Origin: an uncultured virus (IMG/VR IMGVR_UViG_3300033998_000157)
Taxonomy: Duplodnaviria > Heunggongvirae > Uroviricota > Caudoviricetes
DNA length: 20,000 nt
Direction: 5' to 3' (one strand)
IMG/VR virus record: IMGVR_UViG_3300033998_000157
The number at the start of each line of letters is the position of its first letter. Position 1 is the first letter of the stretch. A model generated the notes under the pieces. It made no database searches, had not been told where the DNA came from, and saw only the letters and a program-made list of their open reading frames with translations. Below are positions 3 to 19,832 of this stretch, piece by piece. A program made the position numbers and the translations under genes.

Positions 3-1766
3 GTAGCTTTGACATTAGAGCCAACTTCTGATAATGGAGCAGTTGCTATATTATTCCCTTCATATGGAAACAAACCTTCTGATTTTGCATATATTGTGTA
101 TGATGAGGACTACTTAGATAATGGAGAAGGCGGAGCTTTAATATTAGGAGCAGAAAATGATGGAACTGGTAGTTCTGACCATGTAAGAGTAAAAAGTAGA
201 TTTGTAATTGAAGCAGATATGTCATCCTATGACCCAACAAACGCTTTTACAATCGAACAATCAAAAAATGGAACGGTATTAATGAATGTTCAAAGAGATG
301 GAAACAAATAGTATATTAAAGCAGGTACATATAATGTTATCTTTGAAGGTAGAAATACATGGGACGCTGATGGATCGACAATATATCCAACCATACATGG
401 TTCGCACCAAGATGAATGGGTAATGTTACATTTCCCACATGTTCCATATCTTGAAAATGGCAAAGGCGGTTATAATGGTGTTACATTTGGATAGAGGGTT
501 AGATTTGCAGCCAATGCTAACACACCCACTTACTGGGATTAGGGTATTTAGAGTTCAATAGGTTCTGATAAATTTTCTATTTCAAGAGGCGGAAGTTCTA
601 CATAGTTCTTGTAGATAGACAGTTCTGGTAAAGTAGGTATAGGCAAAAACTCACCTTCTAAAACATTAGATGTATCTGGTGATATTCAATAGAGTGGTCA
701 AATTATTTCAACCGTTTCTACTGGTACAGCTCCGCTTGCTGTAAGCAGTACAACAACAGTATCAAATCTTAGTGCAGATATGGTTGATGGAGTACATTAG
801 TCCAGCTTAGTTCGAAACGACACCACAACAACTATAAGTCACATAGGTCCATGGTTCAAATATACTGGTACGTCAGAAGTTATATTAGCAGAACACACTA
901 ACGGTGGTCCAGTTCCATTCTAGTTAAGAAAAACTGGAGATACTGGTACATCAGATTCATATGGAATTCTCCATTTAGATAGAGGGAAGTCTGAGAATGG
1001 CCAAGGTTCAAACTTGTATTTCAGATTACTTAATGGTTCTTCGTATGAAGAATTTGGTGGAATTGGTTAGAAAAAAGTTGATGATAATAATGGAGAACTA
1101 CAATTTTTGGTAAGAACTGGTGGGACAAGTAGAGTAAAAGTTGGATATTTTAACAAAGATAAATATTTGGTTTTAGAAAAAGGAATGTTAATAGACAACT
1201 CATAGCCTTATTTAAGAGTATGGAACACAAACAGCGGAACTTAGGATTTCTATTTTGGTGAAAGTTCAAGTAACGGATATGGACTACATTTATATTGGGA
1301 TAGTGGATATACCACATATTGGAAGTCAAGGCACGCTGGTACAGATACAAATGTATTTCATATAGACACACGTTCTCCGGACCTTATAATGGATAGGCAA
1401 ATTCAAACTAATACAGGTTCTTCTGGCGGTATTAAAATAGGTAATAGTATATTGTCTTCTGTAGATGGAAATGAATTAGTAATATACAAAACTGATCAGA
1501 TAAGAATATCAGATTCAACATCATGGGATTATAACCAATGGGCTGGAATTAAATATGAATCCTCTACAAGAAAAATGTATATAGGTGGTCCTTAGAGTTC
1601 TAAATTCGATAGTAATACAAACCCTCAAACAATGTAGGCTCTTGTATTAGATTAGGTTGATCAATTAGAAGCTTAGAATACAGATGCAACATTTAAATCT
1701 GTAACAGTTGGAAGTTTTCAAATTCAAGCCGATGCTGAATCGATAGATTTTGTGTATATGGGGTGA
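3..1766 (+). CDS. Tail fibre protein, proximal/gp34-like, 5'-truncated by the window edge; TAG-recoded (587 aa visible)
   Basis: One frame is open from position 3 to TGA 1764-1766, interrupted only by about 16 TAG codons. Fibre motifs: IDSSGKVGIGKNSPSKTLDVSGDIQ*SG and STGTAPLAVSSTTTVSNLSADMVDGVH*SS. The C-terminus VTVGSFQIQADAESIDFVYMG recalls the T4 gp34 C-terminus (from memory). Confidence 0.85.
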
Positions 1767-1770
1767 TTGA

Positions 1771-4671
1771 ATGAGTACAATTAAATCATCATTTGATAAT
1801 GGTGAATACTTTGCAGAAAAAGAAATTAATGAACAATAGCCTCCAATATATGATAGGTAGGTATTATACCTACCTTTTATTGGAGATTTCTTTACTGAAC
1901 ATAATTATCTTGAAGATATTGGAAAACAAAATTTTATTTCGTGGAGCGGTAATGGTTCTTATTGGCAAAACATGATTCAAGATGGTACATTTTTAGGTAA
2001 TCCAATATACAGAGTTGAAAAAAGCACATATGATAGCGGATATTTTTACGCTTATTGTCTTTCAGGACTCGAAAAAATATAGGATGCAGAAGAATATACA
2101 TTAACAGGTATTTTTAAAAGTTCAACATCAAACGAAAGCACATAGCCTTTGGCAAGTATTTATTAGGGCGGTGGCTGTCCTTGGACATAGGGTAATTATA
2201 CTTCTTAGTACGAAAGTGCAATATATAAATATTATTTAGGAAATGGTTGGTGGAGATATTTTTATACATTCAAAATAAATAGGGATAAAATAACAAATTC
2301 TTCATATATCAATAGGTTATATTTAGGATTTCATTGGTCTTGGTAGAGTGTTGGAACATATGTGTGGGGGACTTAGCCATAGTTATATTTAGGAAATACA
2401 TTGCATATTTATCAAGGAAATAAATCCGCTTATTCAATATAGAATATAAGAAAATATTACGATGGAATTGGATTTGAACAACCAACAACAAATCAAATTT
2501 CTACTTCAAATATGGAAGGATATGATATAGGCTATACAGGTAATGTATGTGGTTTTAGTAATAATTTTGATTCAAGGTTTGGATAGGGCAATTGGAGTAC
2601 AGAAATAGTATATTAGGATAATTGTCCTATCGATGGTATTACAAAAGCACAAAGAATAATAACAAAAAAGAGTGGATGGGGCGGATGGACTTCTGGAAAC
2701 ATCGGAAATACTTCTGGCGACATTACATATGGAGTACTTATAAGACTACATTATGGTGAAATACAATTCGGCGATTTGAATACATCAAGCAGGTTGTATA
2801 TAAATAAATCGTATTACCAACAACACAACAAAAAACTTGGAGAATGGTTATGGTAGGTAGATCATTTTTCAGGTACTTCAACAGGTAGGCATTTATATTA
2901 GAATGGGCCAACCAAAGCAGACATTTAGTAGGTATAGATTTATAACCAAAAAGAAACCGTTGGTTATGTGAATGGAAGTGCTGGCATTAGTAAATAGTCC
3001 TTGCCTACTGATATATTTGAAATGTTTAAAAATGAATTTTCTGTTTAGTTCATATATGAACCATTAAGCGAACACACATATGGCACGTATGAAGCTATCT
3101 TCACATTAAATTGGTGGACTGCTGACTATTCGCAAGATTGGGTTGGCATTTATAGAGGAAACGGATGGAGTAATTCCGATACAATTACTTTTGAAATAAC
3201 TGACGGAACAAGGAAATATGATCATAGCACTAATATTTCAGGCATCAATTCAAGATTAAATCATAAACTTTTTGTTTAGGTATCATATAGTGAATCTCAA
3301 AAAAGTTTTTCAATATATGTAAGAGATTTGACTTAGGGTGAAGATTTAGCAAGAGAACTAATATATTTAGAAAATGATTTTTAGTTTAGCCAAAATTGGA
3401 ATTATTAGTATCTTGGAACATTACATCAAGATTCTGGAGTACAAAATTAGAAATATTCGCATTTTATGGTATATAGCAAATATTATAATAGTTATGAATT
3501 AAAAAGATTAATTCCAAAAATATTCGGTGTAGATAAAAATAGCTTTACAAAAGTTAATTTAATAAAGGAACACGAAAACATTTTAGAAAGGTATGGTCCT
3601 ACTTAGTTTGAAACTGGAAAAAATGGTGGTATATGGAGTGCATATACTCAAACAAATTGTTCTGTAACATTAGAACCTGTTAGATTTAAGCAAAATCCAT
3701 ATTCATATTTTATATACAGAAAACCTAATATATCTGGTTCTGGCGGATGTGGCACTGGACAAACATGTAATTGGGGCGGATTGAAATTGTATTTTCCTGA
3801 CGACGGAACTTTTGAAGAAGAATAGACTTACAAACTGAGTTTTTGGTATAAAGGTTATTCTACTCATACAATATAGGTATATTTTTAGTATGAAGTAGGT
3901 TGGGCAAGTAAAGGCGTTGGATTATCAGCTTTAAATTTACCTTCTATCACCCACACATTTGATGATACCGATGGCTGGCAGTATTATGAAGAAACATTTA
4001 CAATACCAGAAGGATATATACATCAAACTGGAACTGATGGTAATACATATTTTTGTATGCGTGAATTTAAAATAGGATATACTTACACCAGCACAGATTC
4101 AGTTGGAACAAGATTATTTATTAATGATTTAACTATAGAAAAAATATCAGATGCTGGTTCTGGAAAAGACACATATGGTATTAAAAAAGACGGAATTTAT
4201 GTAAAACCATTATTTGAAGGATAGAAAAAACACAAAGTTTATTTACTTGGAACTTAGTATGACACGGATCCTTAGATACCAGTAACAGGAAATAGAACTG
4301 TTAGAATAGATGGAACAGATATTGTGAATGGAACAGGTAGAGGATTAGCATTAACTATATTTGACGAAAACTTCAATTTAGTTTCAAATACAATTTATGA
4401 TGTATATGGTGATGATACTTAGAGAACAAATTTGTAGAATTAGCTATAGTAGATAGGAGATACACAATATTGGTAGCTCACTTCATTCGATTAGGTAAAT
4501 CCAAATACAAACCTAACAAATCAGTTGCAAAAAATGGGTTCTAAAATATGGCCATTATCATATAGAAGTCCATATTAGTAGTTAGGACAAGGAAAACGTA
4601 TTCTTTATGAAGATGGCTCCGATTCGGCATAGTATTATAAACATAGATAGGTAATTAATGTAAGAATATAA
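1771..4671 (+). CDS. Large tail-fibre hinge/receptor-binding protein (966 aa) with lectin/CBM-like domains and a C-terminal ILEI/gp35-like domain; TAG-recoded
   Basis: ATG 1771 follows SD GGGGTGA; stop TAA 4669-4671; about 43 in-frame TAG and no TAA/TGA inside. LamG-like segment at ~3040-3510, CBM-like segment (TYKLSFWYKG...GWQYYEETFTIP...LFINDLTIEK), and C-terminal GRGLALTIFD...YDVYGDDT*RTNL*N*L**I...LTSFD*V...YRSPY**LG. Confidence 0.8.
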
Positions 4672-4684
4672 GGGAGGTCAAGAT

Positions 4685-7216
4685 ATGGCTGAACTAAAGG
4701 CAGGCACTACCATAGGTGGATATAGGTAGTTGCACGAAGGGATTTCTAATCCTACATTAAATTCAGATACAACAATTAATGCAAATTTAACAGTAAATGG
4801 AACAACTACTGTAAATGGTGAAATACATTTTGATGACGTTTCTCGATATTGGCTTTCAACTTAGACTAATTGGGGATTATATTGGGATACTTCAACCAAT
4901 CAATTAAAATTCAGAGGTTCTGGTTAGGATAAAGTAATAATAGATTTGGACGACGGAACCACAGAAATAAAAGGAGTTGCAAGCTTAACTTATTCATCTC
5001 AATATCCTTTAAACATTAATGGTTCTGATGACGGAAAAATTGTTTTGCAAGGATCTTCTAATCCTTACATTAGATTTAGAGAAGGAACAACTGATAAATA
5101 GTATATTCAATGGAGTTCAGGTGGTTATTTACAATTCAGAAATCAAGAAGATGGGTCCGGATTAAGAATTAGAGATTCAATTGATTTTACAAAAGACGGA
5201 ACAACATGGTATTCTGTTTGGCATTCTGGTAACCATGGTTCAAACAGTGGTCTTGATGCTGATTTGCTTGATGGACAACATGGTTCATACTATACAAATT
5301 AGTCAAATTTAAATGCTGGCACAGTTCCTACAGCAAGACTTTCAGGAACATATAATATAAGTATTTCTGGTAATGCTTAGACATAGAGTAAATTATAGAC
5401 TTAGAGAACGATTTCTTTAAGCGGAGACGTATCTGGTTCGGCAAATTTTGATGGTTCTGGAGACATAACTATATCGACAACTGTTTAGGATAATTCTCAT
5501 AATCATTAGATAAGTAATATAACATGGGCTTCGAGTCAAAATTTAAATTTAACATAGACTGAAAATAACTTAGAGTGGTCTATAGATATGAGACCAGATA
5601 GCTATACAGGAACTTACTTTCAAATATGGTCAAGTACTAAATCCACAGTGCTAAAAGCAGAACATGATACTGGTTATGTTACTATTCCATATAAATTGAT
5701 AATAGGTTCCACAAGCACTAATCATATAGAATTATATACAGAATCTGGCACATAGCAAATAGCAGATACATTTGCTGATACAACAACCTATAAAAACTAT
5801 ATATACTTTTATCAAGTTTCAACTTCAAATGATCCCGCATATATCATGCATGAAACATCTGACAGCGAAACAAACGAAGGAGTATTACATTTATGTCCTT
5901 CTGATGATAATGCATATGGAGATTATGTTTCTATACACGGAACTAATGACCCAGATGTATTAAAGCTACATACAGACGGAACTATAGAAGGAGTGAAGAG
6001 TTTAACTGCATCAGGAACAATTACATAGACAACTTTTACAGGTTCATTATCTGGTAATGCTTCAACTTAGAGTAAACTTGCTACTTAGAGGACAATTACA
6101 TTATCAGGTGCGGTAACTGGTTCTGCAAGTTTTGATGGCTCTTAGGATATTACAATTTCTACGTCAGTTAATCACAATCACGACAGTTCTTATGTAAATG
6201 TTACTGGTGATTCAATGTCTGGAACCCTTACTGTTCCTACTCTTCAAATTAATGATAGCAATACTAAACTTGTTGAAGGCGGTGAAAACTCCGTTAGAAT
6301 ACAAACAAATAGCGGATATATAGATATAGGTCCTCAAAATACATCTTGGTAGCACCTTGACACAGATAGATCTAATTTTTATTTTGGAAAAAGCATACAT
6401 GTAAATGGAAATATATATGCCTATAACACAAGTTATTATTTTAATGGAAGTTCATTTAATTTTCCTGGCGGAACTGTAAATGGAACGCAAAAAATCACAG
6501 GCGATTTGGATATGGATGAAGGAACAATTTACTATGTACGTGAAATTCGATTTGATTGGACATCAAGAAGTTATAATCAAGAATATCATTCTATTGTAAG
6601 TAAAAACGCATCTGGTACTTTATCTGATGCTATAAGAATTAATAGCTATGGTGACGTTGTAATTAATATAGATTCAAACAACAATGGTACTAATACATTT
6701 TCAATATATAAGCACGGAGGAACAGGTTAGATAAGTTCTTCATATAGGCTCTTCTATGTAGATGAAAGTGGTTATTAGTACGCAACTAAAGTATATGGTG
6801 CAGTATATAACGATTATTAGGAATATAGAATTGGAAAAGAAGAAATTGAGGCTGGATATATAGCTGTCACAGATAATGATGGAAAAATTAAAAAATGCGA
6901 TAAAGATAGAGCAAGAAATATTGCAGGTGTAGTTTCTGATGTATTTGGTTTTGCAATTGGAGAAGTAGATGGAGAAATCAATATACCGATATAGGTTGCA
7001 GGAAGAGTGTTAATTTATTAGTAGAACAAGGAAAAATTAAAAATTGGCGATTAGGTATGTTAGACAAAAGATGGACGAGCAAGAAAAATGAAATGGTGGG
7101 AAAAAATTATTTTCCCAGAATAGATTGTTGGATATGTTGATGAAATACCAGATTACGAAGAATGGGGTAACGATAAAATCAAAGTAAATGGTAGAGTTTG
7201 GATTAGATTGAGGTGA
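4685..7216 (+). CDS. Distal tail fibre protein (843 aa) with C-terminal intramolecular-chaperone/peptidase G2-like domain; TAG-recoded
   Basis: ATG 4685 follows SD GGGAGG; stop TGA 7214-7216; about 27 in-frame TAG. N-terminus MAELKAGTTIGG is T4 gp36-like. Also VWHSGNHGSNSGLDADLLDGQHGSYYTN*SNL, two GNAxTASKLATARTI-type repeats, and C-terminal VYGAVYNDY*EY...GVVSDVFGFAIG...PI*VAGRV...VNGRVWIRLR. Confidence 0.9.
5366..5508 (+). repeat. Tail-fibre internal repeat copy 1 (SGNA*T*SKL*T*RTISLSGDVSGSANFDGSGDITISTTV*DNSHNH)
   Basis: Protein-level repeat of 6050-6181, read directly from translation. Confidence 0.85.
6050..6181 (+). repeat. Tail-fibre internal repeat copy 2 (SGNAST*SKLAT*RTITLSGAVTGSASFDGS*DITISTSVNHNH)
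   Basis: Protein-level repeat of 5366-5508; GCT at 6080 aligns with TAG at 5396. Confidence 0.85.
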
Positions 7217-7220
7217 TTTA

Positions 7221-7847
7221 ATGTAGGCTGTAACTCCATACGTCACTTATGTAAGTCTTAGTATAAATACTGATAATGTTGTATATACATATAAAATAAC
7301 TGCAGATACATACTTCTATAAAATTTGGAACAGTTACACAGGGACCTGGAGTAGTTGGACAACAGTTGGAGCCGCATTAGATAATAGTCCTCGATACAAC
7401 CAAGCACAGCACACAATAACCGTTTCAAGAAGGACTGACGCTTAGGTTTTTTACACAATACATTTCAGAATGTTTGAATACGATTGGATGACTTGGACCG
7501 AATCAGGGAATTCTCATATTTTTAGAAGTTATTATATCTCTTTTTATTAGCCACCTCAATCTTCGTCAAACGTGTTAATAAGAGACGAAATATATAAATA
7601 TTTAATATGTAGTGGTAAATCAACATATTCAACAAACAATTTTCATAGTTCTATTGTTCAAGGATAGTTAGTAGATGATTAGCATAATATGACATTAATA
7701 GATACTGCCGCATAGGGTGGAAACATAATAAGATAGGACAATTATAAAGTATGGTATACTCATTAGCATTCAGGTTCTAATGCATATCGTGATAGAGGCG
7801 AATACGATAACGCAACATATTCAGATTCATACCCATGGCCATGGTAA
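7221..7847 (+). CDS. Hypothetical tail-associated protein (208 aa, Tyr/Trp/Thr/Ser-rich; possible adhesin); TAG-recoded
   Basis: SD GAGGTGA overlaps the previous stop; the gene starts ATG TAG GCT GTA; 8 in-frame TAG; ends YPWPW then TAA 7845-7847. Confidence 0.75.
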
Positions 7848-7861
7848 TTGGTGGTGAAATC

Positions 7862-8347
7862 GTGAAATATTTAAGAACAATATAGTATTCAATAAATACT
7901 GGTAATAAAAAACAATATTATGGTATAACAGGCACAGGTATAGAGTTAGAAATAAAATAGAATGACACAGAAATAATGCAAGTAATTGAACCAGGAAGTT
8001 ATGTAGTAGATGATCAATTAATCGAATTACAAAAACTAAACATATCAATTTTTCAATTGACATATGACAAAAACAAAATATATTTCAGATTGGGTGATAA
8101 CATGACAATAGAAGAATTTAATCAAATAATAAGTTATATTTAGAAAGTCACAAATTCAACAGAAAATGATATTATTCAACATTTTTGCAGATTTTTAAAT
8201 ACTACAGAAGACAAATTGTTTGATATACTAAAAAATGTTAATCAAGGTTTGTTTTTGGGTTTGAGTCATAAAGAACAGGATTTTAAGATATGTATAAACA
8301 CCAAAGAATTAGATAAGTTGGTGATAGATAATGCAAATCAAGTTTGA
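7862..8347 (+). CDS. Hypothetical protein (161 aa); TAG-recoded
   Basis: GTG 7862 follows GGTGGTGA; 3 in-frame TAG; TGA 8345-8347 overlaps the start of the next gene. Confidence 0.7.
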
Positions 8348-8582
8348 CGGAGAATATTATGACAACATGCACATTGCTTTTACACAAAATGAAAATATAG
8401 TGAGTATAATATTAGAAAAAGAAAAAGCAGATTTTACAACGTTATCAAATGAAGAATACGATATAATTTTAGTTGATGAAGAAAATAAAAAAGAAGAAGT
8501 ATTATTTACAGTTTCGAAAAATAACATAGTTAAAACATCTTTTGGCAATTATACAAAAATATATATTTATAAAGAACTTTAA
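8331..8582 (+). CDS. Hypothetical protein (83 aa)
   Basis: ORF track; SD-like GGTGA upstream; no TAG; TAA stop; fits operon packing. Confidence 0.7.
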   Translation: MQIKFDGEYYDNMHIAFTQNENIVSIILEKEKADFTTLSNEEYDIILVDEENKKEEVLFTVSKNNIVKTSFGNYTKIYIYKEL

Positions 8583-8594
8583 GGAGGTTAAAGT

Positions 8595-8969
8595 ATGATT
8601 ATTAAAGCTTTTGATGTACAAAACAAGGAAATTGCAACAGTTCAATAGGATCCAGCGTATGTAAAGTATAATCTTCAATACGAAACCGAATCTGGAAATT
8701 TTAAAGGATTCTTTGAAATTGTGCGTGGTGAAGCAAATATGCTTTCATTATTAAAAGTTTTAAAGTATTCTGTGCAAAAGAACTTATCACATTTAATAGT
8801 TGAAAATGAAGATGGAACACAATTATATGGTGTATCAATGTTATTCGCAGAAGCTCAAACAATAAATATCCATGAAGGTCACTTATACTTCAGAATGGGT
8901 ATAATTATTACTCCAGAAAATATGGAAGAATACGCACAATTCTTAGAAGCACACGGATTATATCAATAA
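8595..8969 (+). CDS. Hypothetical protein (124 aa); one recoded TAG
   Basis: Strong SD AAGGAGG at 8581-8587 and ATG 8595. TAG at 8646-8648 joins it in frame to track ORF 8721..8969. TAA stop. Confidence 0.75.
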
Positions 8970-8978
8970 TAAAATATC

Positions 8979-9010
8979 AAAATGCCCCCACAATATGGGG
9001 GTATTTTATT
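8979..9010 (+). terminator. Intrinsic terminator closing the tail-fibre operon
   Basis: AAAATGCCCCCA-caata-TGGGGGTATTTT stem-loop with a T-rich tail, just after the 8969 stop. Confidence 0.7.
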
Positions 9011-9023
9011 AGGAGATGTTGCT

Positions 9024-9773
9024 ATGAATATTTTTGGATTAGAAATTGAAATGATGTTGCCTGAAATTGTTTTGCTCGAACCTCCTGTTCAAAATATACC
9101 GATAAGGTATGTAACCACAAACATGCTAAAAAACATGCCTTCGAATTTGTTTAATATTACGTTAGTCAAAGAATATAATTTTACAGTAGACGTAATTTTT
9201 AAATTCAAAGATATCGAATATAAAAAAACAATGCCTAAAAATTGGTGGAATTCAGTGAACAAATTTTTAGATAAGAATAATTGGAAATTATAGTTTCCAT
9301 TGCATGAGATGTTATCAGATAGTGAAATATATGAATTAGCATATCAATATTATACAGGACAGTAGAGTGACAGAATCAAAAGAATATATACAGGTTACAA
9401 ATTATTAGACGAATATTTCAAAGAATGGAATTTTGCGTGGCATTATGCTCATAATGGATTAAAAAATGAAAAATTGCATAACAAAAATATATTTAGAGTT
9501 GAGTATGACGGAAGCATAATTAAAGGTGATACCGAAATATTTAAGGGTAAATATTATGGAATAGAACTAATAACACCAATTTTTAATAAGGAATCAATTA
9601 TAGAAGTATATTCGAAAGTATTAGATTTTATTCTCATAACCTTGATATCTATTTACAAAATCGTCTTCATTATCCCACTCAGGATAGAAATACAACGTTT
9701 CGCCGTTTTGAAGTTTAAATTCGATAATGGATATATCTCTATATAGTGTCAAATAATTTCGTATAGTCAATGA
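9024..9773 (+). CDS. Putative amidoligase (COOH-NH2 ligase type 2)-like protein, N-terminal half only and probably truncated; TAG-recoded
   Basis: SD AGGAG and ATG 9024. TAG at 9291 and 9363 join two track ORFs. Motifs FGLEIE, FRVEYDGSI and GIELITPIF are present. After ~9620 the frame runs antisense into the next gene, to TAG 9744 or TGA 9771. Confidence 0.55.
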
Positions 9774-10260: not shown

Positions 10261-11586
10261 ATGGCTAAATTTAAAAAAGCTCCTCCTTATTACACATTGT
10301 TGGATCATATAATTAAATTAAATCGAAATCATGGGGTTGATTTGTTTACTATTTTCTACTACTGGGTCATGCAATGCGAGTTATACGAAGATGAGGACTT
10401 TGTATCCAGCGTCTATAGCGTCATTAATGAAAAATTTGAGGGCTTTAATAAGGCAAATAATATTAATGCTATTATAATATTTTTCATCGGAGTTATAAAC
10501 ACATATAGTAAATACAAGAGCCTTCCTGATTACATTCGACCTATAATGGCTAAAGCTTTCTATAGGTTAAGTATTTATGTTCAAGAAGGCGCTAAGTTAC
10601 AGAATAAAATTACTTTTGTTGAAGCTGTGGCTTCTAAAGATATTAATCAAAAATATTCTCCACGTGGTTATTTCATTTTGTCAAATTTGTTCTATAAGAA
10701 AAATACGAAGGAATTAATAGAAGTTATAGAATACGATGTTTCTGAAGAAGAAAAAGAAGAACCTTTTAAGAATCATAAAGTGTTTGATTATGATGAAATA
10801 GCTTTAATGGTTCATAGTGTGCTTACTTCGAAAAATCAAAATGAACCTTTAATTAAAAATATACAAGAAATGGTTGAAGAAATTTCAGATGAAGAATTGA
10901 ATGATGTTGTTGGAAACGAACCTTCTATGATTAAAAAATTGTATGCATATACAAAATTATTGATAATTGTCGCTAAAGAAAACGATAAGACAATTAAAGA
11001 ACTCGAAATTGATAGGAATAGATTAGATAATGCTATTAGAGGTATTATAGCTTCACAAAGACACGATAAAACATTCGAAGAATTAGAAAATAGAGTTGCT
11101 TATTTAGAAAATTTATTAGCAGAGAAGAATAAAGAAATTCATCAATTAAGGAATGATGAAAAGTCTAAAACTATAGAAAAATTAAATAAGAAACTAAGCG
11201 AATTGCAAGAAAAGTATATTGCTCTTAGCGAAGAAAACAACTCAAGAAAAGAGCTCATCAATGAATTAATGGAACAAGATAGATATTTTATAGAAGAAGA
11301 TATTATGACACCCTTAGAAGAACCAATAGACGTCATATACTTTGGATTAAGAAATATGGAACTCTATAATTATCTGAAACAATTCAATATATTGCTATAT
11401 ACTGTGAATCCAACTGTTACCCCAGATTACGTTCCAGAAGACAAACCTATTGTATTCAATATAGATGTTGCTAAACATGTGGTTTGGTGGAAAATTAAAC
11501 ACCTAAAACCATTACTTGTAACTGGTTCGAATGCAGAAAGATTAGGTAATATGATATATAGATTTGTAAAAGAGAGGTGGCAATAA
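10261..11586 (+). CDS. Coiled-coil protein (441 aa) with a possible DUF2325-like C-terminal alpha/beta domain
   Basis: ORF track; SD AGGTGGTGA; long E/K/L heptad segment at ~aa 240-340; C-terminal IDVIYFG...IVFNIDVAKH. The domain call is from memory only. Confidence 0.75.
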   Translation: MAKFKKAPPYYTLLDHIIKLNRNHGVDLFTIFYYWVMQCELYEDEDFVSSVYSVINEKFEGFNKANNINAIIIFFIGVINTYSKYKSLPDYIRPIMAKAFYRLSIYVQEGAKLQNKITFVEAVASKDINQKYSPRGYFILSNLFYKKNTKELIEVIEYDVSEEEKEEPFKNHKVFDYDEIALMVHSVLTSKNQNEPLIKNIQEMVEEISDEELNDVVGNEPSMIKKLYAYTKLLIIVAKENDKTIKELEIDRNRLDNAIRGIIASQRHDKTFEELENRVAYLENLLAEKNKEIHQLRNDEKSKTIEKLNKKLSELQEKYIALSEENNSRKELINELMEQDRYFIEEDIMTPLEEPIDVIYFGLRNMELYNYLKQFNILLYTVNPTVTPDYVPEDKPIVFNIDVAKHVVWWKIKHLKPLLVTGSNAERLGNMIYRFVKERWQ

Positions 11587-12041
11587 TGTTTTACCTCAAC
11601 GAGTCGTTTATAATGGTACCTAAATCAGTAATGATTTTTGCTTTAACTGTTAGGCCAGCAAATACAGGACGTATTTATCTTTACCTGTATTCAAACTCTC
11701 TTGCTCATTCGTGGAAAATTGGTGTTGCAAAAAAATACACAAGTTTAATTTCATACAGACATATATCGAAGAAGATGGAGATAGCATACGGAATAGTGGA
11801 AGACTCGATACATCAATTAATCAAAATCAATGCTATTAAAAAAGTTGAACAAAATAATAAAGGCACTGTGTATAAAGTAAATGTACCTGAATGGTACGAC
11901 GAAGAAAAAGGAGAATGGCATTTTGAAGATCCAGAAAAGTCAAGAACATTCTATGCTATAGATGAAGATATAGATACATTAAAACATATTAAAACCAGAC
12001 TTAAAGAAGATAAAATACCACTATTTAAAAAGATATTTTAA
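11586..12041 (+). CDS. Winged helix-turn-helix DNA-binding protein
   Basis: Start moved to ATG 11586 (TAATG coupling, SD GAGAGGTGG; the track uses GTG 11577). SYRHISKKMEIAYGIVEDSIHQLIKINAIKKVEQNNKGTVYKV fits a wHTH pattern. Confidence 0.65.
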   Translation: MFYLNESFIMVPKSVMIFALTVRPANTGRIYLYLYSNSLAHSWKIGVAKKYTSLISYRHISKKMEIAYGIVEDSIHQLIKINAIKKVEQNNKGTVYKVNVPEWYDEEKGEWHFEDPEKSRTFYAIDEDIDTLKHIKTRLKEDKIPLFKKIF

Positions 12042-12042
12042 A

Positions 12043-12062
12043 AAGGGGCAATTAAGCCCCTT
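12043..12062. terminator. Probable bidirectional terminator between convergent genes
   Basis: AAGGGGC-aattaa-GCCCCTT flanked by A and T runs, between the stops at 12041 (+) and 12061 (-). Confidence 0.7.
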
Positions 12063-12342
12063 ATATTTTTAAGTTGTATTTGTTTATCAGTTTCATTATT
12101 TTGTTGAATAGTTCTTCTGTATAATCCTTGTCGTTGATGTAAATGTGTATGTATCCAGAACTTCCGTCAATAATAACGAAATGATTATAATTCTGTTTTC
12201 TCAATTCGTCATCAATTATGTTCTTACTTACAGTCATATATTCAACATACTTTCGTGAGTCAAATTCTCCTTCAAAAATATAATCAATCCCTTCTAAAAT
12301 CGGTATTAATTCAAATAGTATATGGTGAAAAGTTAAACTCAT
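12061..12342 (-). CDS. Hypothetical protein (93 aa)
   Basis: ORF track; SD GAGGTGG; TAA stop. Confidence 0.7.
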   Translation of the reverse strand: MSLTFHHILFELIPILEGIDYIFEGEFDSRKYVEYMTVSKNIIDDELRKQNYNHFVIIDGSSGYIHIYINDKDYTEELFNKIMKLINKYNLKI

Positions 12343-12353
12343 ATAACCACCTC

Positions 12354-13361
12354 TTAGTATAGAACTAAATATACATCAATATTTTCACTGAATACTAATT
12401 CAGATAACATCAACATATTTGCTATCGCATTTATTGTATAGTTGATATATTCATCAAATGTTTTATCGCTTTCTTCGTAATAACAAATTTTTATTATATC
12501 ATCATCAAATACTATATATACATCAGAATTTTCTGGAAAATATACATGCGGATTATATATGTTTCGAGAATGTGTTTTATCTGCTATAGCTGTGTAATTG
12601 TAGAATTTACCAATAGTATTGTGAATATTTTTTGTGCTTAACATATCCAATGTTATATAATACGGCTCTTCTTCTCCCCTAAAAACCTTTAAAGGCGGTT
12701 TTTTCATAGCCATATTAATCATATTATTAATCAAACATATATTATTCTGGTAATATGTGCTTTTTGCTAAAGAAAATACTAAGTCTCTATGTGTTTTAAG
12801 AAATTTATCTATTTTAGGAATCATGAATAATAATGGGTTTTCAGAAATTATGTGTTGAGAATTTACTTTTATTAATTCGTTCAACATTCTGAAATTCACA
12901 ATCAATTCATCTGAATTTTTAATGCTATTTACTATGTTCTCGAAAATATGCAAATCTTCTCTAACCTTGTTTATTGTATTAAAATCCCTAAAATCATTTT
13001 CTTTTATTGATTCCTTACACAATTCAAGTCTCGCAATTTCATAGTTCAAAAATTCTTGGAAAAATAATATATGTTGTAATACTGTCAATCTTTTTAATTG
13101 CAATAATTCGCTTTTCAAATTCATGAAGAAGTCATATTCTTCTTTTTCCACTTTAAGCAAAATGACATCTTCATCAATTCCGTATTTGCGTTTTATAAAT
13201 TTCTTTCTATTAGTAACCGTATAAGAACACAAAAATTCAGTTTCCTCTTCTATTTTGAAATTTTGTCGTTCTTCTTCTGATTTAAAATCTCTAATATAAA
13301 ATCGTATATTATTATTGTAGTTATACATTTCTTCTTGTGGTTTTTGTTTAGCAAAAAACAT
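12354..13361 (-). CDS. Hypothetical protein (335 aa)
   Basis: ORF track; SD AAGGAGG; TAA stop; no family recognised. Confidence 0.8.
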   Translation of the reverse strand: MFFAKQKPQEEMYNYNNNIRFYIRDFKSEEERQNFKIEEETEFLCSYTVTNRKKFIKRKYGIDEDVILLKVEKEEYDFFMNLKSELLQLKRLTVLQHILFFQEFLNYEIARLELCKESIKENDFRDFNTINKVREDLHIFENIVNSIKNSDELIVNFRMLNELIKVNSQHIISENPLLFMIPKIDKFLKTHRDLVFSLAKSTYYQNNICLINNMINMAMKKPPLKVFRGEEEPYYITLDMLSTKNIHNTIGKFYNYTAIADKTHSRNIYNPHVYFPENSDVYIVFDDDIIKICYYEESDKTFDEYINYTINAIANMLMLSELVFSENIDVYLVLY

Positions 13362-13381
13362 TATTGCGCCTCCTTATTATA

Positions 13382-13405
13382 ATATCCAGCCTCACGGCTG
13401 GACAT
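13382..13405 (-). promoter_or_regulatory. Stable GNRA-loop hairpin upstream of the RBS of 13361
   Basis: Minus strand ATGTCCAGCC-GTGA-GGCTGGATAT, followed by TATAATAAGGAGG; no U-tract. Confidence 0.45.
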
Positions 13406-13473
13406 AGTTACCTTTTTAATATATTGTATGAAAAACTGAACTATTTGGAGAATATAGAACAAGAAATGTTAGG

Positions 13474-13659
13474 TTAACTTTTTAATATATTGTATGATAA
13501 ACCTAATATTGTATATACAGATAAGAATACTAAAAGTACTTTAACGTAAAACGGGATATAATATGGTATAACAGAAAATGCTGTCAATATAGTTAGTATA
13601 GATATTGCTATTATTAATAGCATTATGTCCGAAAACACTAATTGCATCATCTTTTTCAT
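13474..13659 (-). CDS. Small membrane protein, two predicted TM helices (61 aa)
   Basis: ORF track; SD GGAGGG; two hydrophobic stretches. Confidence 0.7.
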   Translation of the reverse strand: MKKMMQLVFSDIMLLIIAISILTILTAFSVIPYYIPFYVKVLLVFLSVYTILGLSYNILKS

Positions 13660-13671
13660 ATTATCCCTCCA

Positions 13672-14916
13672 TTAAATATGCAATAAGAATTCTGGTTCTG
13701 TTTTCATTATATATTTAATAATTGATTCTTTGAATTTTTTATCTGTTTCTTCTTTATATATATCATATAATTTAGAACTATAACCATTTATTTTTAAAGT
13801 TCTTAATATATTAACAGTTTTCTTTCTTAATGGTATTGGATTTCTTTTATCTGATGCAAGTTCATATAACTTATCTGCATAATCTTTTAACGCAAATTTC
13901 TTTATCACATCAATGGCAAATGATTTCATTTTTAAAGAATTAGATTTCAACATATCTTCGATTTTTTCGACAAGCATATAATCTTGAAAATGTAACAAAT
14001 ATCTTATAGCATAATCATATTCTTCTTTAAACACATATTGTCTTGCCTCATTTATGTGATTTGGATCATCTTTAAGCATAGCGATTTTAAATTTTAAATT
14101 TACTATTTTAGGGTCTTGTATTTCTTCAATTTTAGCTATATCGCTTTCTCTAATAACTTCAATACTATATTTTGATAAAACACTTGTAATTAATATTCTT
14201 ATTAATTCTACATCTTCTTCTTTATCCATTTGATCAATATAGAATTTTTTACCAAATTCAAGTGGTAAATCAGTAATATGTTTTATAACTAATTTCTTTA
14301 ATTTATTAGGTAATTCATCATATATAGGCACTAATAAATTATATATAGATACAGTATCATGTTGTTCTACAAACCTATTAATAATTATTTCCTTTGTTTT
14401 CTCATTAACATATGGATTTAATATTACTTCTTTTTCATTGCCTTCATTAATTATGCTAATTATTACTGGATTAGTTTCGTCTTTAAACAATTCATCCAAT
14501 CTATGATAATCATACATTTTTAATAATCTAGCTAATCTAATTCTTACTTTTTCATTTGAATCTTTTGACAATTTTTCTATTTCTTCAAAAGACAACAAAT
14601 CATTTTCAACTACTTTTTCTAATGCAAATAATCTAACGCTGATTTCTGGATCATATATAAATTGTTTTAATTCCAGATTATCTATCATTTTGTTTTTGTT
14701 GCAATATTTTAACGCTTCTAATCTTACTTTTCCATTATCGTGATTAATAAATTCTTTAACACCTGTAATTATTGTTTCCATATTAGATAGTTTTTTAATT
14801 GCTAATGCTATATCAATTGGATTTTCACTTTCTAACATTTTAGAGTATTTTAAATATTCAGTTCTTGTTGCTTCTTCCATAAGTTCTTTATACTTTTCAA
14901 TTATTGGATTTGCCAT
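13672..14916 (-). CDS. HEAT-repeat protein (414 aa)
   Basis: Repeated HEAT-like motifs: NHDNGKVRLEALK, YDPEISVRLFALE, KDSNEKVRIRLAR. SD AAGGGGG. Confidence 0.85.
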   Translation of the reverse strand: MANPIIEKYKELMEEATRTEYLKYSKMLESENPIDIALAIKKLSNMETIITGVKEFINHDNGKVRLEALKYCNKNKMIDNLELKQFIYDPEISVRLFALEKVVENDLLSFEEIEKLSKDSNEKVRIRLARLLKMYDYHRLDELFKDETNPVIISIINEGNEKEVILNPYVNEKTKEIIINRFVEQHDTVSIYNLLVPIYDELPNKLKKLVIKHITDLPLEFGKKFYIDQMDKEEDVELIRILITSVLSKYSIEVIRESDIAKIEEIQDPKIVNLKFKIAMLKDDPNHINEARQYVFKEEYDYAIRYLLHFQDYMLVEKIEDMLKSNSLKMKSFAIDVIKKFALKDYADKLYELASDKRNPIPLRKKTVNILRTLKINGYSSKLYDIYKEETDKKFKESIIKYIMKTEPEFLLHI

Positions 14917-14928
14917 GCAAACACCCCC

Positions 14929-15159
14929 TTAATTTTTAACACCCTCAAGTGATTGCTTTTGTAATAATTTCTGTACTTCTTCTATATATTCTTTCATTCT
15001 TTTATCGATATAATTTTCTAATTCTTTTTGATCAACATTTAACTTTTCTACTAAAAACTCTAAGATATAACTTATTACTTGTAAGTTTTGGTTTGTTTTA
15101 ATTTGTAATTGTGCCAAACTATCAAGTTCTTGTTGTAATGTTTTCATCTTATCATCCAT
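14929..15159 (-). CDS. Small coiled-coil hypothetical protein (76 aa)
   Basis: ORF track; SD GGAGGTG; TAA stop. Confidence 0.7.
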   Translation of the reverse strand: MDDKMKTLQQELDSLAQLQIKTNQNLQVISYILEFLVEKLNVDQKELENYIDKRMKEYIEEVQKLLQKQSLEGVKN

Positions 15160-15161
15160 AT

Positions 15162-15371
15162 TTACACCTCCGAATTCTCAAATTTTTTCTCTAAAAATTC
15201 TGCTAATTCAAACAAATCTATATTAGCATCAGAAATTATAAAATCTACAATTGTATATAAAACCATTATTGAGTTATACATATCATTTAATTGTATAGAT
15301 ATGTTGTTTATATCATTATCTATTTTATTAACTTTGTTTTCTAGTTCTGTAATACGTTTGTTGTTAAACAA
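15162..15371 (-). CDS. Small coiled-coil hypothetical protein (69 aa)
   Basis: ORF track; TTG start with GGAGGTGG SD; TAA stop. Confidence 0.65.
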   Translation of the reverse strand: MFNNKRITELENKVNKIDNDINNISIQLNDMYNSIMVLYTIVDFIISDANIDLFELAEFLEKKFENSEV

Positions 15372-15372
15372 A

Positions 15373-15414
15373 TCCTACCACCTCCTATATAAATATATTA
15401 TACTGGTGGTAGGA
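15373..15414 (-). promoter_or_regulatory. Inverted repeat overlapping the RBS of the 15371 gene (RBS-occluding hairpin and/or polC terminator)
   Basis: TCCTACCACC (15414-15405) pairs with GGTGGTAGGA (15382-15373). The loop contains TATAAT and the stem is followed by TTTGTTT. Confidence 0.55.
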
Positions 15415-15423
15415 ATAAATAAC

Positions 15424-18400
15424 TTAAACAAACACTGTTGGTGCGTCTGATGTTAATCCTTCCATTGCTCCGATTTCTTGTAAAATTGCAATATGATTTT
15501 TATTAGCCTTAACTCTCTTTTTAAAGTCTTCAACAGACATAAATTGTAATTTATTTCTTTCATTAACTATATTATTAGCTACAGATGTTCCTAATCCTTT
15601 TATTGTATTTAAAGGTAATAATATTTTATTGTTTTTAACAATAAATTTTTCTGCTTCGCTTTCATATATATTTGGTAATTCAAATTCAATATTATGTTGT
15701 TTAGCATCAAATATTATTTCTAATATACTTGCATCTTTTTTATCCTTAGCATTTTTAGTTCTTAAAAGTTTAAATATTGTATCAACCAATGTTTTTGAAT
15801 CCATCATATAATAATCAAAAGTTACTGATGATTTTTTAGATAAAATTGCACTATAAAATGCTGCTGGATAATATCTTTTAAACCATGCTATTCTATAACT
15901 CATCATTACATATGCTGCCGAATGTGCTTTTGGGAATAAATAACTTATCTTTTTACATGCATTTATATACCATTCTGGTACTCCGTGTGCTTTCATTTCG
16001 TGTATGTCTTCATCTCTTAATCCTTTGCCTTTTCTAACTCTTTCCATAATATCAAATGATAATTTTTTATCTACACCTTTAGAAATAAGGTAATTCATTA
16101 TATCGTCTCTTGCCGTGATAATTTCCTTTAATGTTGCAACACCTGATTGTACTAAAATCTCTTCATTTCCATTCCAAATATTTTCACCATGAGCTATACC
16201 TGCTATTCTAACTAATTCATCAAAAGTAGTCGGTCTTGTGCTTTCTAATATTCTTCTTACAAATGGAGTTCCAAATTCTGGAATACCAATACTATCAATC
16301 TTACTAATTGGTTCTAAATCATAATCTGTTGAATTGAATAATTTCATAACTTCTTTATCATCCATTGGAACAGTTAAAGGATCTACTCCTGTATATTCTT
16401 GTAAATACTTTAAAATTGTAGGATTTAAATGACCTAAAGCGTCTAATTTTACTATATCATCGTGTATATGTTCGTAAGCTATATGAGTTGTAAATGCTTG
16501 TGATGTGTCATTAGCAGGATGTTGATATGGTGTAAAATCAAACACTTGATATTTCTTTGGTACTATTAACAATCCTCCAGGATGTTGAGATGTACCTACT
16601 TTAACTCCTTGTAATCTTTTTGCTATATATTCAACTGTAGCGTCTGATATCTTTCCATTTGTACTTGCATAATCTCTTGCTATTCCAAATGCAGTTTTTT
16701 CTGCAATTGTAAGTATTGTTCCAGCTCTAAATACTTTATCTTCACCAAACACTTGTCTAACATAATCATGTGCCTTTGCTTGGAATTCATCTGAAAAATT
16801 TAAATCTACGTCTGGTACTTTATCTCCTTCAAATCCAACAAATGTTTCAAACGGTATATTTAAACCTCTTTTATCCATTTTTACATTACATTTTTCACAA
16901 TATTTATCTTCTGCATCATATCCAGTTGGAGCATCTACAAATTCAGTATGTTTACATTTAGGACAAACATAATGAGCAGGCATAGGATTAACTTCTGTAA
17001 CTCCTATTAAATGAGCAACCAAAGAAGAACCTACCGAACCTCTTGAACCAACAATATATCCATTGTCTTGTGAATACTTAGTAACAATTTGTGCTAATAA
17101 ATATAATTCAGCAAATCCGTGTTTAATAATTGAATTAAGTTCTTTGTTCACTCTTTCTAAAATAGCTTTATGTGGATTATCACCGTATTCTTCTTTAAGT
17201 CGTCTCAACGTTAATTCTTTCAATTGTTTGTCAGAATTTTCAATTCCTGGCGGTATTAATATTCCATTAACTATTTTTATATTTTCAATATCTTCTATTA
17301 ATTGTTTTGGGCCATTTAATACTATATTCATCGCCACATTTTTGTCATTAACTATATCTTGAATTTCTTTTATTAATTCATCTGTTCTAAAAAAGTAAGC
17401 TTCTATATCTTCTTTATTTCTTGACTTTGATTTATTACTTTGAGTTAGTGATTTAAATACTATTCTATCGTACTCATCTAAATAATGTGCATTAGATACT
17501 GCAATAATAGGTTTTTTCATCTTTTTAGATAATTCAAACTCATATTTATATATATTTTTCGATGTTTCTGGATTAACTGATGTTTTTGCTGGTGCTATTT
17601 CTATATAATCATATAATTCTTTATAATGATCTATATTTCTATCATTAAATTCATTGTTATATATTTCTTCGTATAATGTACTACCTTCTAATCCTGTTCC
17701 ATATAATAATCCTTTTTTATATTCTTTTAATTTATTTTCTGGTATTGCTGGAATACCATGATATAAATACTTTGAATGTGCATCTGAAATCATTTTATAT
17801 AAGTTTTTCAAACCTTCTTGTGTTTTAACTATAACTGATACTTGTATTATTTTTCTATCTACTTCATTCTGTTTTCCATATTCATTTAATTCGTTTGCTG
17901 TAAAAATTTTTAATTTAAAAGTTCTTTCTAATAATTTCATAAATATCATTGCTAATACTTTAGCATCTTCATCAGCTCTATGATGATTAAAATCTCCCAA
18001 TTTAAATGTTTTTGCTAATGATGCCAAACCATGTCTTTTTCTGTTGTTCATAACTGTTCTTGATAATCTTAATGTATCTAAGTAAGTCATATTAATTTCT
18101 TCTATTGCATTTATAAAAGAATAGTCAAAATCCGCATTATGAGCTACAAGCACAGTTCCTTTAATAAACTCTTTGAATTTTGGCCAAACCTCTTCTATAT
18201 ATGGTGCATTTTCTACCATATCTTGTGTTATACCAGTGATTTGAGTTGAAATTTTACTAATTTGCTTTCTTGGTTTAACCATTGTATGAAAACTATCTAT
18301 AATCATACCATTTTCTACTTTAACAGCACCAATTTCAATTATTTCATCATATTTTGGACTCGTGCCAGTGGTTTCTAAATCAAACACTGTGTATGTTTTC

Positions 18401-19209
18401 TCTGTTAAATTAAAATCTTCTTTTAAATTATTAATAATTAAAGAATCATCGTTATATACATTAATTGTTGCACCATAAATTGGAGTTATATTATATTTCT
18501 TAGATACTTTTTCTAATATAGGAAAACCTTGAACGCTTACTATATCAGAAATTCCTATATATTTATATCCTCTTTCACTCGCTTCTTTTACATATTCTTC
18601 TATATCTAATACAGATGTGGCTTCTGATAATTTAGTTTTTACATTCAATTCAATTCTTTCTATATCTTTCTTTTTTGTTTCTATCCTTTGTATTTTATTT
18701 AATAAAATAGCATTGCTTCCATAATTACCTTGTATTAACACTTCTTCTCCAACATTAATGTTTTCTATAATATGTGCATCCAAAGTATTTACATAACATT
18801 TTATTGTTTCTGTTGTATCATTTACATACAATACATTTTCTTGTTTATGAACTACTTTACCTTTAATTATAACTTCTTTTGGTCTTGATATATAAACATC
18901 TTTGATATTCATTGCACCTTCGATAGATAAACCTTTCTTTTTCTTTAACTCTTTACCAGTTAGTTCTAAAATTCTATTTCTAAACATATCAGAACTTACA
19001 TACATTTGTTTGTCTTTATAATCTACATAAATCCAATAATATTTAGAATATGTTCTAACAAACACATCTTTGTTTATTTTTTGCTTTAATATTTGTGCCT
19101 TTTCTTTATAATCTTTCGGCATATATTTTAAAAATACATATAATTTATTATCTTTTATATAAGCATGTTCAGGTTCAACTCCAAATATTTCGTGTATTAA
19201 TTCTTTCAA
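15424..19209 (-). CDS. polC: DNA polymerase III alpha subunit, PolC type (family C with embedded DnaQ exonuclease)
   Basis: Exonuclease motifs VFDLETTG, AHNADFD and HHRADEDA; GSRGSVGSS; Zn finger CPKC..CEKC; catalytic KVPDVDLNFS; SQHPGG; KLDALGH; YLFPKAHSAAY. Likely start is TTG 19209, given GAGGAGG spacing (the track uses GTG 19218). Confidence 0.95.
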   Translation of the reverse strand: MKELIHEIFGVEPEHAYIKDNKLYVFLKYMPKDYKEKAQILKQKINKDVFVRTYSKYYWIYVDYKDKQMYVSSDMFRNRILELTGKELKKKKGLSIEGAMNIKDVYISRPKEVIIKGKVVHKQENVLYVNDTTETIKCYVNTLDAHIIENINVGEEVLIQGNYGSNAILLNKIQRIETKKKDIERIELNVKTKLSEATSVLDIEEYVKEASERGYKYIGISDIVSVQGFPILEKVSKKYNITPIYGATINVYNDDSLIINNLKEDFNLTEKTYTVFDLETTGTSPKYDEIIEIGAVKVENGMIIDSFHTMVKPRKQISKISTQITGITQDMVENAPYIEEVWPKFKEFIKGTVLVAHNADFDYSFINAIEEINMTYLDTLRLSRTVMNNRKRHGLASLAKTFKLGDFNHHRADEDAKVLAMIFMKLLERTFKLKIFTANELNEYGKQNEVDRKIIQVSVIVKTQEGLKNLYKMISDAHSKYLYHGIPAIPENKLKEYKKGLLYGTGLEGSTLYEEIYNNEFNDRNIDHYKELYDYIEIAPAKTSVNPETSKNIYKYEFELSKKMKKPIIAVSNAHYLDEYDRIVFKSLTQSNKSKSRNKEDIEAYFFRTDELIKEIQDIVNDKNVAMNIVLNGPKQLIEDIENIKIVNGILIPPGIENSDKQLKELTLRRLKEEYGDNPHKAILERVNKELNSIIKHGFAELYLLAQIVTKYSQDNGYIVGSRGSVGSSLVAHLIGVTEVNPMPAHYVCPKCKHTEFVDAPTGYDAEDKYCEKCNVKMDKRGLNIPFETFVGFEGDKVPDVDLNFSDEFQAKAHDYVRQVFGEDKVFRAGTILTIAEKTAFGIARDYASTNGKISDATVEYIAKRLQGVKVGTSQHPGGLLIVPKKYQVFDFTPYQHPANDTSQAFTTHIAYEHIHDDIVKLDALGHLNPTILKYLQEYTGVDPLTVPMDDKEVMKLFNSTDYDLEPISKIDSIGIPEFGTPFVRRILESTRPTTFDELVRIAGIAHGENIWNGNEEILVQSGVATLKEIITARDDIMNYLISKGVDKKLSFDIMERVRKGKGLRDEDIHEMKAHGVPEWYINACKKISYLFPKAHSAAYVMMSYRIAWFKRYYPAAFYSAILSKKSSVTFDYYMMDSKTLVDTIFKLLRTKNAKDKKDASILEIIFDAKQHNIEFELPNIYESEAEKFIVKNNKILLPLNTIKGLGTSVANNIVNERNKLQFMSVEDFKKRVKANKNHIAILQEIGAMEGLTSDAPTVFV

Positions 19210-19305
19210 TATAGGCACCTCCTCTATGTGAAAGCACTCCTTTGTAATATTGTATTATTATTTAAAAGAAATAACTTGTATATATCCCTATATATTACAT
19301 TTTTT

Positions 19306-19333
19306 GAAAAATAAAGCACCACTTATGTGGTGC
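19306..19333 (-). terminator. Intrinsic terminator after the 19338 gene
   Basis: Minus strand GCACCAC-ATAA-GTGGTGC followed by TTTATTTTT. Confidence 0.75.
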
Positions 19334-19337
19334 CTCA

Positions 19338-19832
19338 TTATTTCTTTTTAACAACTATTATTTTCACATCACCATCTTCATCAATTCCTTCATTAGCAAG
19401 TTTCTTTATTTGTTCTATAACTTCTTCATCATCTATTATCTCTTTTAATGTTTTTTCAATTGGTTTAAAATCATCATCTTTTTCAATTTTGCGTGACTCT
19501 TTAACCACTTCTTTAAACATTAAATATTCTTTTGAAAGCCTATTTATCATATCATTGGATAATTGTTCAAAGTTTTTATAAACACCAGAAGTAAAAGTTT
19601 TTAATATATCATCAAATTCTTTGTTTCTTAAATCAATTTTCAATGAATCTTCTAAATATTCAGAAAAAGCTTCTAGAAAATTTTCTACAAATAATTTACC
19701 TATTTCTTTGATGTTTTTATTTAGCATATTCATTTCTTCATTAACAATTTTATCAAATTTGTTTAAATCAATTTTATCGAAAATATCTTCACCAAATTCT
19801 TCTTCTAATAACTTTTTTAAATTTTTATCCAT
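19338..19832 (-). CDS. Hypothetical acidic helical protein (164 aa)
   Basis: ORF track; SD GGAGGTG; TAA TGA stop. Confidence 0.8.
   Translation of the reverse strand: MDKNLKKLLEEEFGEDIFDKIDLNKFDKIVNEEMNMLNKNIKEIGKLFVENFLEAFSEYLEDSLKIDLRNKEFDDILKTFTSGVYKNFEQLSNDMINRLSKEYLMFKEVVKESRKIEKDDDFKPIEKTLKEIIDDEEVIEQIKKLANEGIDEDGDVKIIVVKKK

Follow-up and report, generated by a model that had tools for sequence, protein, structure and literature searches.

The portions of the Borges et al. preprint (10.1101/2021.08.26.457843) that deal with code assignment report that TAG aligns best with glutamine and TGA with tryptophan, and they name only these two reassignments in phages whose code differs from that of their host. 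The glutamine meaning of TAG in recoded phages was validated by proteomics, according to the relevant part of PMC9523058. Our literature search found no phage in which the amber codon had become alanine; the only natural UAG-to-alanine code that it returned is that of Hydrodictyaceae/Neochloris green-algal mitochondria, as set out in the corresponding sections of Zihala and Elias (2019, PMC6821328). Here we describe a 20,000-nt stretch of an uncultured Caudoviricetes virus (IMG/VR record IMGVR_UViG_3300033998_000157), hereafter the window, whose virion genes are full of in-frame TAG codons, and consider what those codons mean. We judge it probable that the replication genes of this phage follow the standard code while TAG in its virion genes stands for alanine, read by a putative alanine-charged tRNA(CUA).

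Compared with the genetic code 15 phages (crAss-like, Lak, Garnet, Topaz, Agate and others), as that preprint portrays them in part (10.1101/2021.08.26.457843), the window shares the confinement of in-frame TAG to structural, late genes, the TAG-free replication genes, a host that presumably uses the standard code, and gating of late-gene translation as the likely role. It differs in that its TAG columns are alanine rather than glutamine, in that suppressor tRNA, release factor and synthetase genes are not visible within the window, and in its habitat, which is the subsurface rather than the gut. With the algal mitochondria it shares the codon and the new meaning, drawn likewise from conserved alignment columns; that study identifies the decoder as a tRNA(CUA) closest to tRNA-Ala(UGC) and describes a code that applies to a whole organelle genome and arose after UAG disappearance and a release factor change (PMC6821328). 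The phage, in contrast, uses one code for its early genes and another for its late genes, in a host whose own code is presumably standard, with TAG only in the late block.

Residues opposite TAG in standard-code homologues

The window (29% GC) is part of an uncultured phage genome laid out like that of a stop-codon-recoded phage. Under translation table 11 there is no open reading frame (ORF) of 80 aa or more across 312–8330, and reading through TAG produces five back-to-back ORFs that fill 3–8347. Six plus-strand virion ORFs in 3–9773, with TAG read through, carry 100 in-frame TAGs in 3043 codons, distributed as 16, 43, 27, 8, 3 and 3 over 3–1766, 1771–4671, 4685–7216, 7221–7847, 7835–8347 and 8982–9773, respectively. 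The replication/early block at 10261–19832 (six genes on both strands) has no TAG in 2778 codons, against 121 GCN alanine codons. TAG terminates none of the 12 genes in the window: late genes end in TGA (four) or TAA (two), and all six early genes end in TAA. With TAG counted as alanine, the virion genes hold 191 alanine codons, 100 of them TAG and 91 GCN. GCN-alanine makes up 3.0% of late-gene codons, glutamine 2.6% and TAG 3.3%, and codon composition by itself does not decide between alanine and glutamine.

The first three plus-strand ORFs are fibre-like virion proteins. The ORF at 3–1766 (587 codons) is the 3′ part of a gene that encodes 851 aa in full, 1771–4671 (966 codons) probably encodes a receptor-binding or tail protein, and 4685–7216 (843 codons, ending in TGA) is a tail-fibre gene. 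The product of the last (P0001) matches PHROG tail-fibre families with E-values of 1e-14 to 1e-27, and towards its C-terminus it is similar to the phi29 pre-neck appendage protein (3gqh), at the end of that protein that serves as an intramolecular chaperone.

Homologues of these three genes were searched with TAG translated as X, scoring equally against every residue. This collected 120 sequences for the tail-fibre gene, 42 for the upstream fibre-like gene and 109 cluster representatives for the 966-aa gene. Ten relatives translated with glutamine at TAG and four self matches were excluded from scoring, leaving 258 subjects (111, 42 and 105). Columns were retained when identity held at 5 or more of the 12 neighbouring columns and four or more subjects covered them, each subject counting once per column.

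Fifty TAG columns from the three genes passed this filter, and alanine was the plurality residue in 33 of them, compared with 28 of 46 columns in which the phage itself has a GCN alanine codon. The mean profile of TAG columns (A 0.45, S 0.07, L 0.05, T 0.04) resembles that of GCN-alanine columns (A 0.47, S 0.08, V 0.07); glutamine columns have Q at 0.33, and serine columns have S 0.44, T 0.14 and A 0.10. Each TAG column was also scored by cross-entropy against the empirical profiles of the individual amino acids. Totals over the 50 columns were −114.1 nats for alanine, −146.5 for serine, −149.6 for threonine and −156.9 for glutamine, placing alanine first of all residues tested, 32 nats ahead of serine and 43 ahead of glutamine. 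Alanine ranked first in 2000 of 2000 bootstraps over columns and in each gene scored separately (24, 4 and 22 columns); 1771–4671 is a second, independent gene whose homologues carry alanine at TAG columns. Split-half controls recovered the true residue in 200 of 200 trials for 16 of 18 amino acids (glutamine 196, methionine 177). In 11 TAG columns at least 80% of homologues have alanine, including 65 of 65 at residue 462 of the tail fibre and 23 of 24 and 30 of 33 at two positions of the 966-aa gene. Sequence comparison thus supports alanine well as the meaning of the codon.

The tail-fibre repeat and the relatives of the phage

An earlier note on this DNA, made from its letters alone, had proposed that TAG means alanine and not glutamine because two copies of a repeat within the tail-fibre gene align without gaps over about 40 residues and pair TAG with small residues. 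We recovered one such repeat family (D1), in which 5366–5494 and 6050–6178 (both plus strand) align over 129 nt without gaps at 71% identity. The copies share 92 of 129 bases, compared with a mean of 63 (sd 1.6, maximum 69) in 100 codon-shuffled genes. Their spacing of 684 nt is a multiple of 3 and keeps the reading frame, and both lie in the single frame of 4685–7216 that is open only with its 27 TAGs read through. In that frame the alignment spans 43 codons, with identical non-TAG residues at 31. With TAG written as X, copy 1 reads SGNAXTXSKLXTXRTISLSGDVSGSANFDGSGDITISTTVXDN (TAGs at 5378, 5384, 5396, 5402 and 5486) and copy 2 reads SGNASTXSKLATXRTITLSGAVTGSASFDGSXDITISTSVNHN (TAGs at 6068, 6086 and 6143).

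The ungapped alignment and the five codon pairs of the earlier note were all reproduced: TAG 5378 with TCA 6062, TAG 5384 with TAG 6068, TAG 5396 with GCT 6080, TAG 5402 with TAG 6086, and GGA 5459 with TAG 6143. A sixth pair, absent from that note, joins TAG 5486 to AAT 6170 at the 3′ edge of the repeat, where the copies differ by an indel (TTVXDNSHNH versus TSVNHNH). The non-TAG partners are therefore four: serine, alanine, glycine and asparagine. The code shows within the repeat, with no database, because one copy retained GCT where the other has TAG. Taken alone, the repeat is suggestive of a small residue and excludes little beyond large ones. The alanine meaning finds its main support elsewhere, in the 50 columns of three genes and in a relative compared at the DNA level (below). 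In the 41 columns outside both copies alanine again leads serine (−99.5 versus −124.8 nats) and is the plurality residue in 24, and the alanine result does not depend on the repeat.

Alignment with homologous repeats from standard-code phages, which the note had put forward as a check, gave a clear outcome. The motif T-x-.KL.T-x-R occurs 85 times in 52 of the 111 standard-code homologues of the tail fibre. At its two x positions, both TAG in the two copies, alanine is found in 83 of 85 cases between T and.KL and in 75 of 85 between T and R, and glutamine in none. Variable columns, or columns favouring serine or large residues, would have spoken against alanine and were not found in these repeats. 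In the glutamine-translated relatives, Q occupies the first of these positions in 6 of 10 cases and the second in 8 of 10, the rest being mostly A.

The repeat is of the type found in the Dec protein. Phage L Dec (PDB 6e3c) matches copy 2 over Dec residues 88–134 (E = 1.3e-8), where its sequence, NAETADKLSTARTITLTGAVTGSASFDGSANVTI, places alanine opposite the TAGs at residues 462, 468 and 487; alanine thus stands at three of the four aligned TAGs and tyrosine at the fourth. The tail fibre of the cultured Nitratiruptor phage NrS-4 (LC545445.1) reads GNASTATKLKTTRTIALSGDVSGSASFDGSGNVTI; its identity to the repeat region is 57% with X for TAG, and 68–70% over copy 1 with TAG as Q or A. These Dec-type beta-helix repeats (the C-terminal part of Dec, 6e3c; PHROG tail-fibre families 8378, 7389, 11011 and 23820; Dec family 3018; NrS-4) and the window have in common the motif GNA.TA.KL.TARTI.L.G.V.GS..FDGS.N..I, and differ in that this phage spells the conserved alanines of the motif TAG. 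When copy 1 was compared with 50,697 GenBank phage records, translating TAG as alanine matched 868 records, 186 of them at 60–80% identity, against 776 and 45 with glutamine, and each listed top match scored higher with alanine. Among twelve readings of TAG tried against PHROGs, alanine brought the most families below 1e-15 (nine, versus five for glutamine) and outscored glutamine in seven of those nine.

A second internal key was seen in the first gene of the window, where the fibre motif LDG.HAS appears as VDGVH-TAG-SSL with its TAG at 798–800 (5300–5302 is listed with it). Ten of 17 homologues have alanine at this TAG. The same protein, as recovered upstream of the window from its database copy P0242, also contains LDGLHASSF with an ordinary alanine.

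Exchange between TAG and GCN among close relatives, which the note had also suggested looking for, was observed at the DNA level. Among 151 Thermotogota genomes searched, one relative turned up, a 2.3-kb contig (G090:C278, locus L246), with the gene order of the window: the last part of the 966-aa gene is followed by a fibre gene whose product begins MAEL, and there are 23 and 13 in-frame TAGs. In a codon-wise comparison with the window, TAG stands opposite GCN in 12 cases, TAG in 8, serine codons in 5 and CAA in 1; the relative has a single copy of the repeat, to which both copies of the window align, and this region is counted twice. Its motif, GN-TAG-ETATKL-TAG-T-TAG-RTI-TAG-LAG-TAG-VTGS-TAG-SFDGS-TAG-N, has TAG at GCT, GCG and GCA codons of the window and GCA at a window TAG.

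The remaining close relatives are database proteins. The database copy of the window's own protein (P0242) has glutamine at 16 of 16 TAGs; hence the glutamines of the closest relatives are code-15 translations of TAG and carry no evidence on its meaning. Ten such relatives (P0285, P0002, P0003, P0006, P0008, P0013, P0019, P0021, P0028 and P0046) have glutamine opposite most TAGs and are glutamine-rich (up to 10.4%) and alanine-poor (down to 1.7%). P0285, for example, has 8.0% glutamine and 1.7% alanine, compared with medians of 2.5% and 9.2% in standard-code homologues. P0242 and these roughly ten relatives are probably mistranslated at every TAG in public protein collections.

Other collections yielded little. 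Scans of IMG/VR for two fibre-repeat patterns with TAG at a conserved alanine codon found 0 contigs, against at least 126 for the GCN version; on this basis the lineage appears to be absent from the IMG/VR collection scanned. A DG.H-TAG pattern gave three matches there, all out-of-frame chance occurrences. GenBank phages contained no near match, and no relative was found among them by blastn, or by tblastn with P0001, prot2, P0019 and P0002. Exact 42- and 48-mers of the window were absent from viral and metagenome contig collections, and a DNA search of the Thermotogota bin G090 gave no further phage contig.

Competing readings and the putative decoder

Several observations weigh against alanine. 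The plurality residue is other than alanine in 17 of 50 TAG columns, although GCN-alanine columns behave alike (18 of 46). Two PHROG families score higher with TAG as glutamine than as alanine: phrog_5181 (109.4 versus 92.6 bits) and phrog_5342 (65.8 versus 62.8). The first, of unknown function, covers residues 214–496 of P0001 (5324–6172); it is strongly matched by two glutamine-translated relatives (P0002 and P0019) and not, at 1e-25, by four standard homologues, and code-15 translations of TAG-bearing genes may have gone into its profile. Among close relatives, the non-TAG partner is serine almost as often as it is alanine (about 16 versus 22, summed by hand). No tRNA gene was detected in the 20-kb window by ARAGORN, nor by Rfam (0 matches at E ≤ 1). 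Lastly, TAG lies two to three substitutions from GCN and no GCN codon is reachable in one, so it is not obvious how 100 such codons could have arisen. A path through TCG (serine) is plausible, if conjectural, and fits the serine partners among close relatives.

The alternative that fares best, though improbable, is that TAG encodes another small residue, serine or glycine, tolerated at alanine positions. A tRNA-Ser(CGA) is one anticodon change away from reading TAG, TCG becomes TAG by one substitution, and seryl-tRNA synthetase also ignores the anticodon. Serine was the second-best reading in column scoring, it is paired with TAG (as TCA) in the internal repeat, and it is a frequent partner among close relatives. 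The TAG columns are nonetheless unlike serine columns, by the 32 nats given above, and the 11 columns with at least 80% alanine contain almost no serine. In PHROGs, serine scores below alanine in eight of the nine families reached with alanine; phrog_5342 is again higher without alanine (64.5 with serine versus 62.8).

Less probable still is ambiguous or leaky decoding, in which near-cognate host tRNAs or several suppressors would insert mixed residues. In its favour, no dedicated tRNA was found in the window and one third of TAG columns are not dominated by alanine. But GCN-alanine columns show the same non-alanine fraction, TAG also falls in columns that are 100% alanine among homologues, and leaky read-through could not carry translation to the end of a gene with 43 TAGs.

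The reading of TAG as glutamine (code 15, as in crAss-like, Lak and other recoded phages), with glutamine tolerated at ancestral alanine positions, we regard as very unlikely. CAG becomes TAG by a single transition, the gene callers behind the database proteins work with this reassignment, as in P0242, and the two PHROG families above score higher with it. Against this, glutamine ranks only sixth among the residues modelled and is the plurality residue in 1 of 50 TAG columns. It is missing from all 85 + 85 core motif positions of standard-code homologues, GenBank phage matches improve with alanine, and the relative at L246 pairs TAG with CAA once and with GCN 12 times. That the TAGs are real stops, in decayed virion pseudogenes or through assembly artefacts, has a negligible chance: the region does lack a long ORF under table 11, but all 100 stops are TAG and in frame, homology continues through them along whole proteins, eight TAG/TAG pairs recur in a relative from another data set, the same sequence comes from two runs, and the early genes have none.

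Alanine remains the preferred meaning, and a mechanism can be proposed for it. Alanyl-tRNA synthetase (AlaRS) recognises the G3:U70 pair of the acceptor stem and disregards the anticodon; a tRNA body of any kind can therefore turn into an alanine suppressor if it has this pair. By analogy with this recognition and with the algal precedent, we infer an alanine-type suppressor tRNA: the phage would supply a tRNA with anticodon CUA, to be charged by the AlaRS of its host. None of the 42 tRNAs in bin G090, which holds the fragment of the relative, has this anticodon. Virion genes would become translatable only once the suppressor is made, which would gate late genes as proposed for TAG-to-glutamine phages, and TAG may replace GC-rich GCN codons in an AT-rich genome.

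Neighbouring genes, host and significance

Downstream of the tail-fibre gene lie three small late genes on the plus strand, 7221–7847 (8 TAGs), 7835–8347 (3) and 8982–9773 (3). The first has TAG as its second codon (ATG TAG GCA, 7221–7229), and its translation would consequently be blocked at once without a suppressor; the first TAG of the other late genes is at codons 15, 17, 23, 103 and 104. Searches of the small late genes and of the early genes against Pfam, PHROGs and NCBIfam gave nothing usable. The early block includes a PolC-type DNA polymerase III alpha subunit of 1264 aa with an inserted exonuclease domain (15424–19218, minus strand).

This polymerase bears on the host. Among the matches listed, the nearest cellular PolC proteins are from Thermotogota (43–47% identity), with Bacillota at no more than 44%. 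A small clade of short metagenomic PolCs (P0123–P0128) is 46–59% identical to the product of 15424–19218. Searches of 151 Thermotogota genomes for PolC found host-type proteins only, at up to 47% identity, and a seven-sequence alignment of the phage lineage (A1) searched against genome and metagenome contigs had only cellular PolC, at up to 44%, among the matches listed. In IMG/VR the single PolC protein had no match and alignment A1 only distant exonuclease domains.

A TAG-free gene of 154 aa at 11577–12041 (plus strand) is 63% identical (92 of 147 aa; about 70% at the DNA level) to a stand-alone gene in one Thermotogota genome (G073) and also matches two others, G076 (in two places) and G079, partly at contig ends. 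As a sequence signal this points to gene exchange with Thermotogota or to a host among them. A 35-nt match to G079 was considered as a CRISPR spacer and rejected, there being no repeat array. The fragment of the relative lies in a Thermotogota bin, and both sequencing runs that contain the window bear the label subsurface metagenome. Taken together, the PolC, the 154-aa gene, the bin of the relative and the subsurface runs make a Thermotogota host likely, though unproven.

Contigs aligned to the window showed no variation at any TAG codon. In run X1 the contig extends 4218 bases beyond the left end of the window, and the original assembly runs on past its right end. The Logan assembly of run X1 breaks within 5871–6009, just upstream of repeat copy 2, between contigs of 10.1 and 13.9 kb; the break is bridged only by a 139-base piece, with odd joints at 6009>6117 and 6156>1, and the cause is probably the internal repeat, which would tangle the assembly graph. 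Logan contig depth rises from about 22 to 240–300 over 19883–19986, the right end of the window, with a CG>TA variant at 19955–19956, and the 13.9-kb contig ends at 19903. This segment, in which ARAGORN and Rfam found nothing, is shared with a far more abundant sequence in the sample, whether a repeat, an attachment site or a host element.

We think it likely, with somewhat less assurance than for the codon's reading in this phage, that the window represents a phage lineage in which amber means alanine, the first such lineage found and also the first such system outside organelles. This lineage would comprise at least ten members in public metagenomes, all mistranslated with glutamine, would probably infect subsurface Thermotogota, and would exploit the indifference of AlaRS to the anticodon. 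If so, code switching in phages would not be limited to glutamine and tryptophan as currently thought, and a synthetase that ignores the anticodon would offer a third easy route to reassignment. Gene callers that offer only code 15 enter glutamine for roughly 3% of the residues of these virion proteins, degrading homology searches, structure prediction and family profiles, of which the behaviour of phrog_5181 may be one trace. A natural alanine amber suppressor borne by a phage would be of interest for genetic-code engineering and for virus-resistant recoded hosts.

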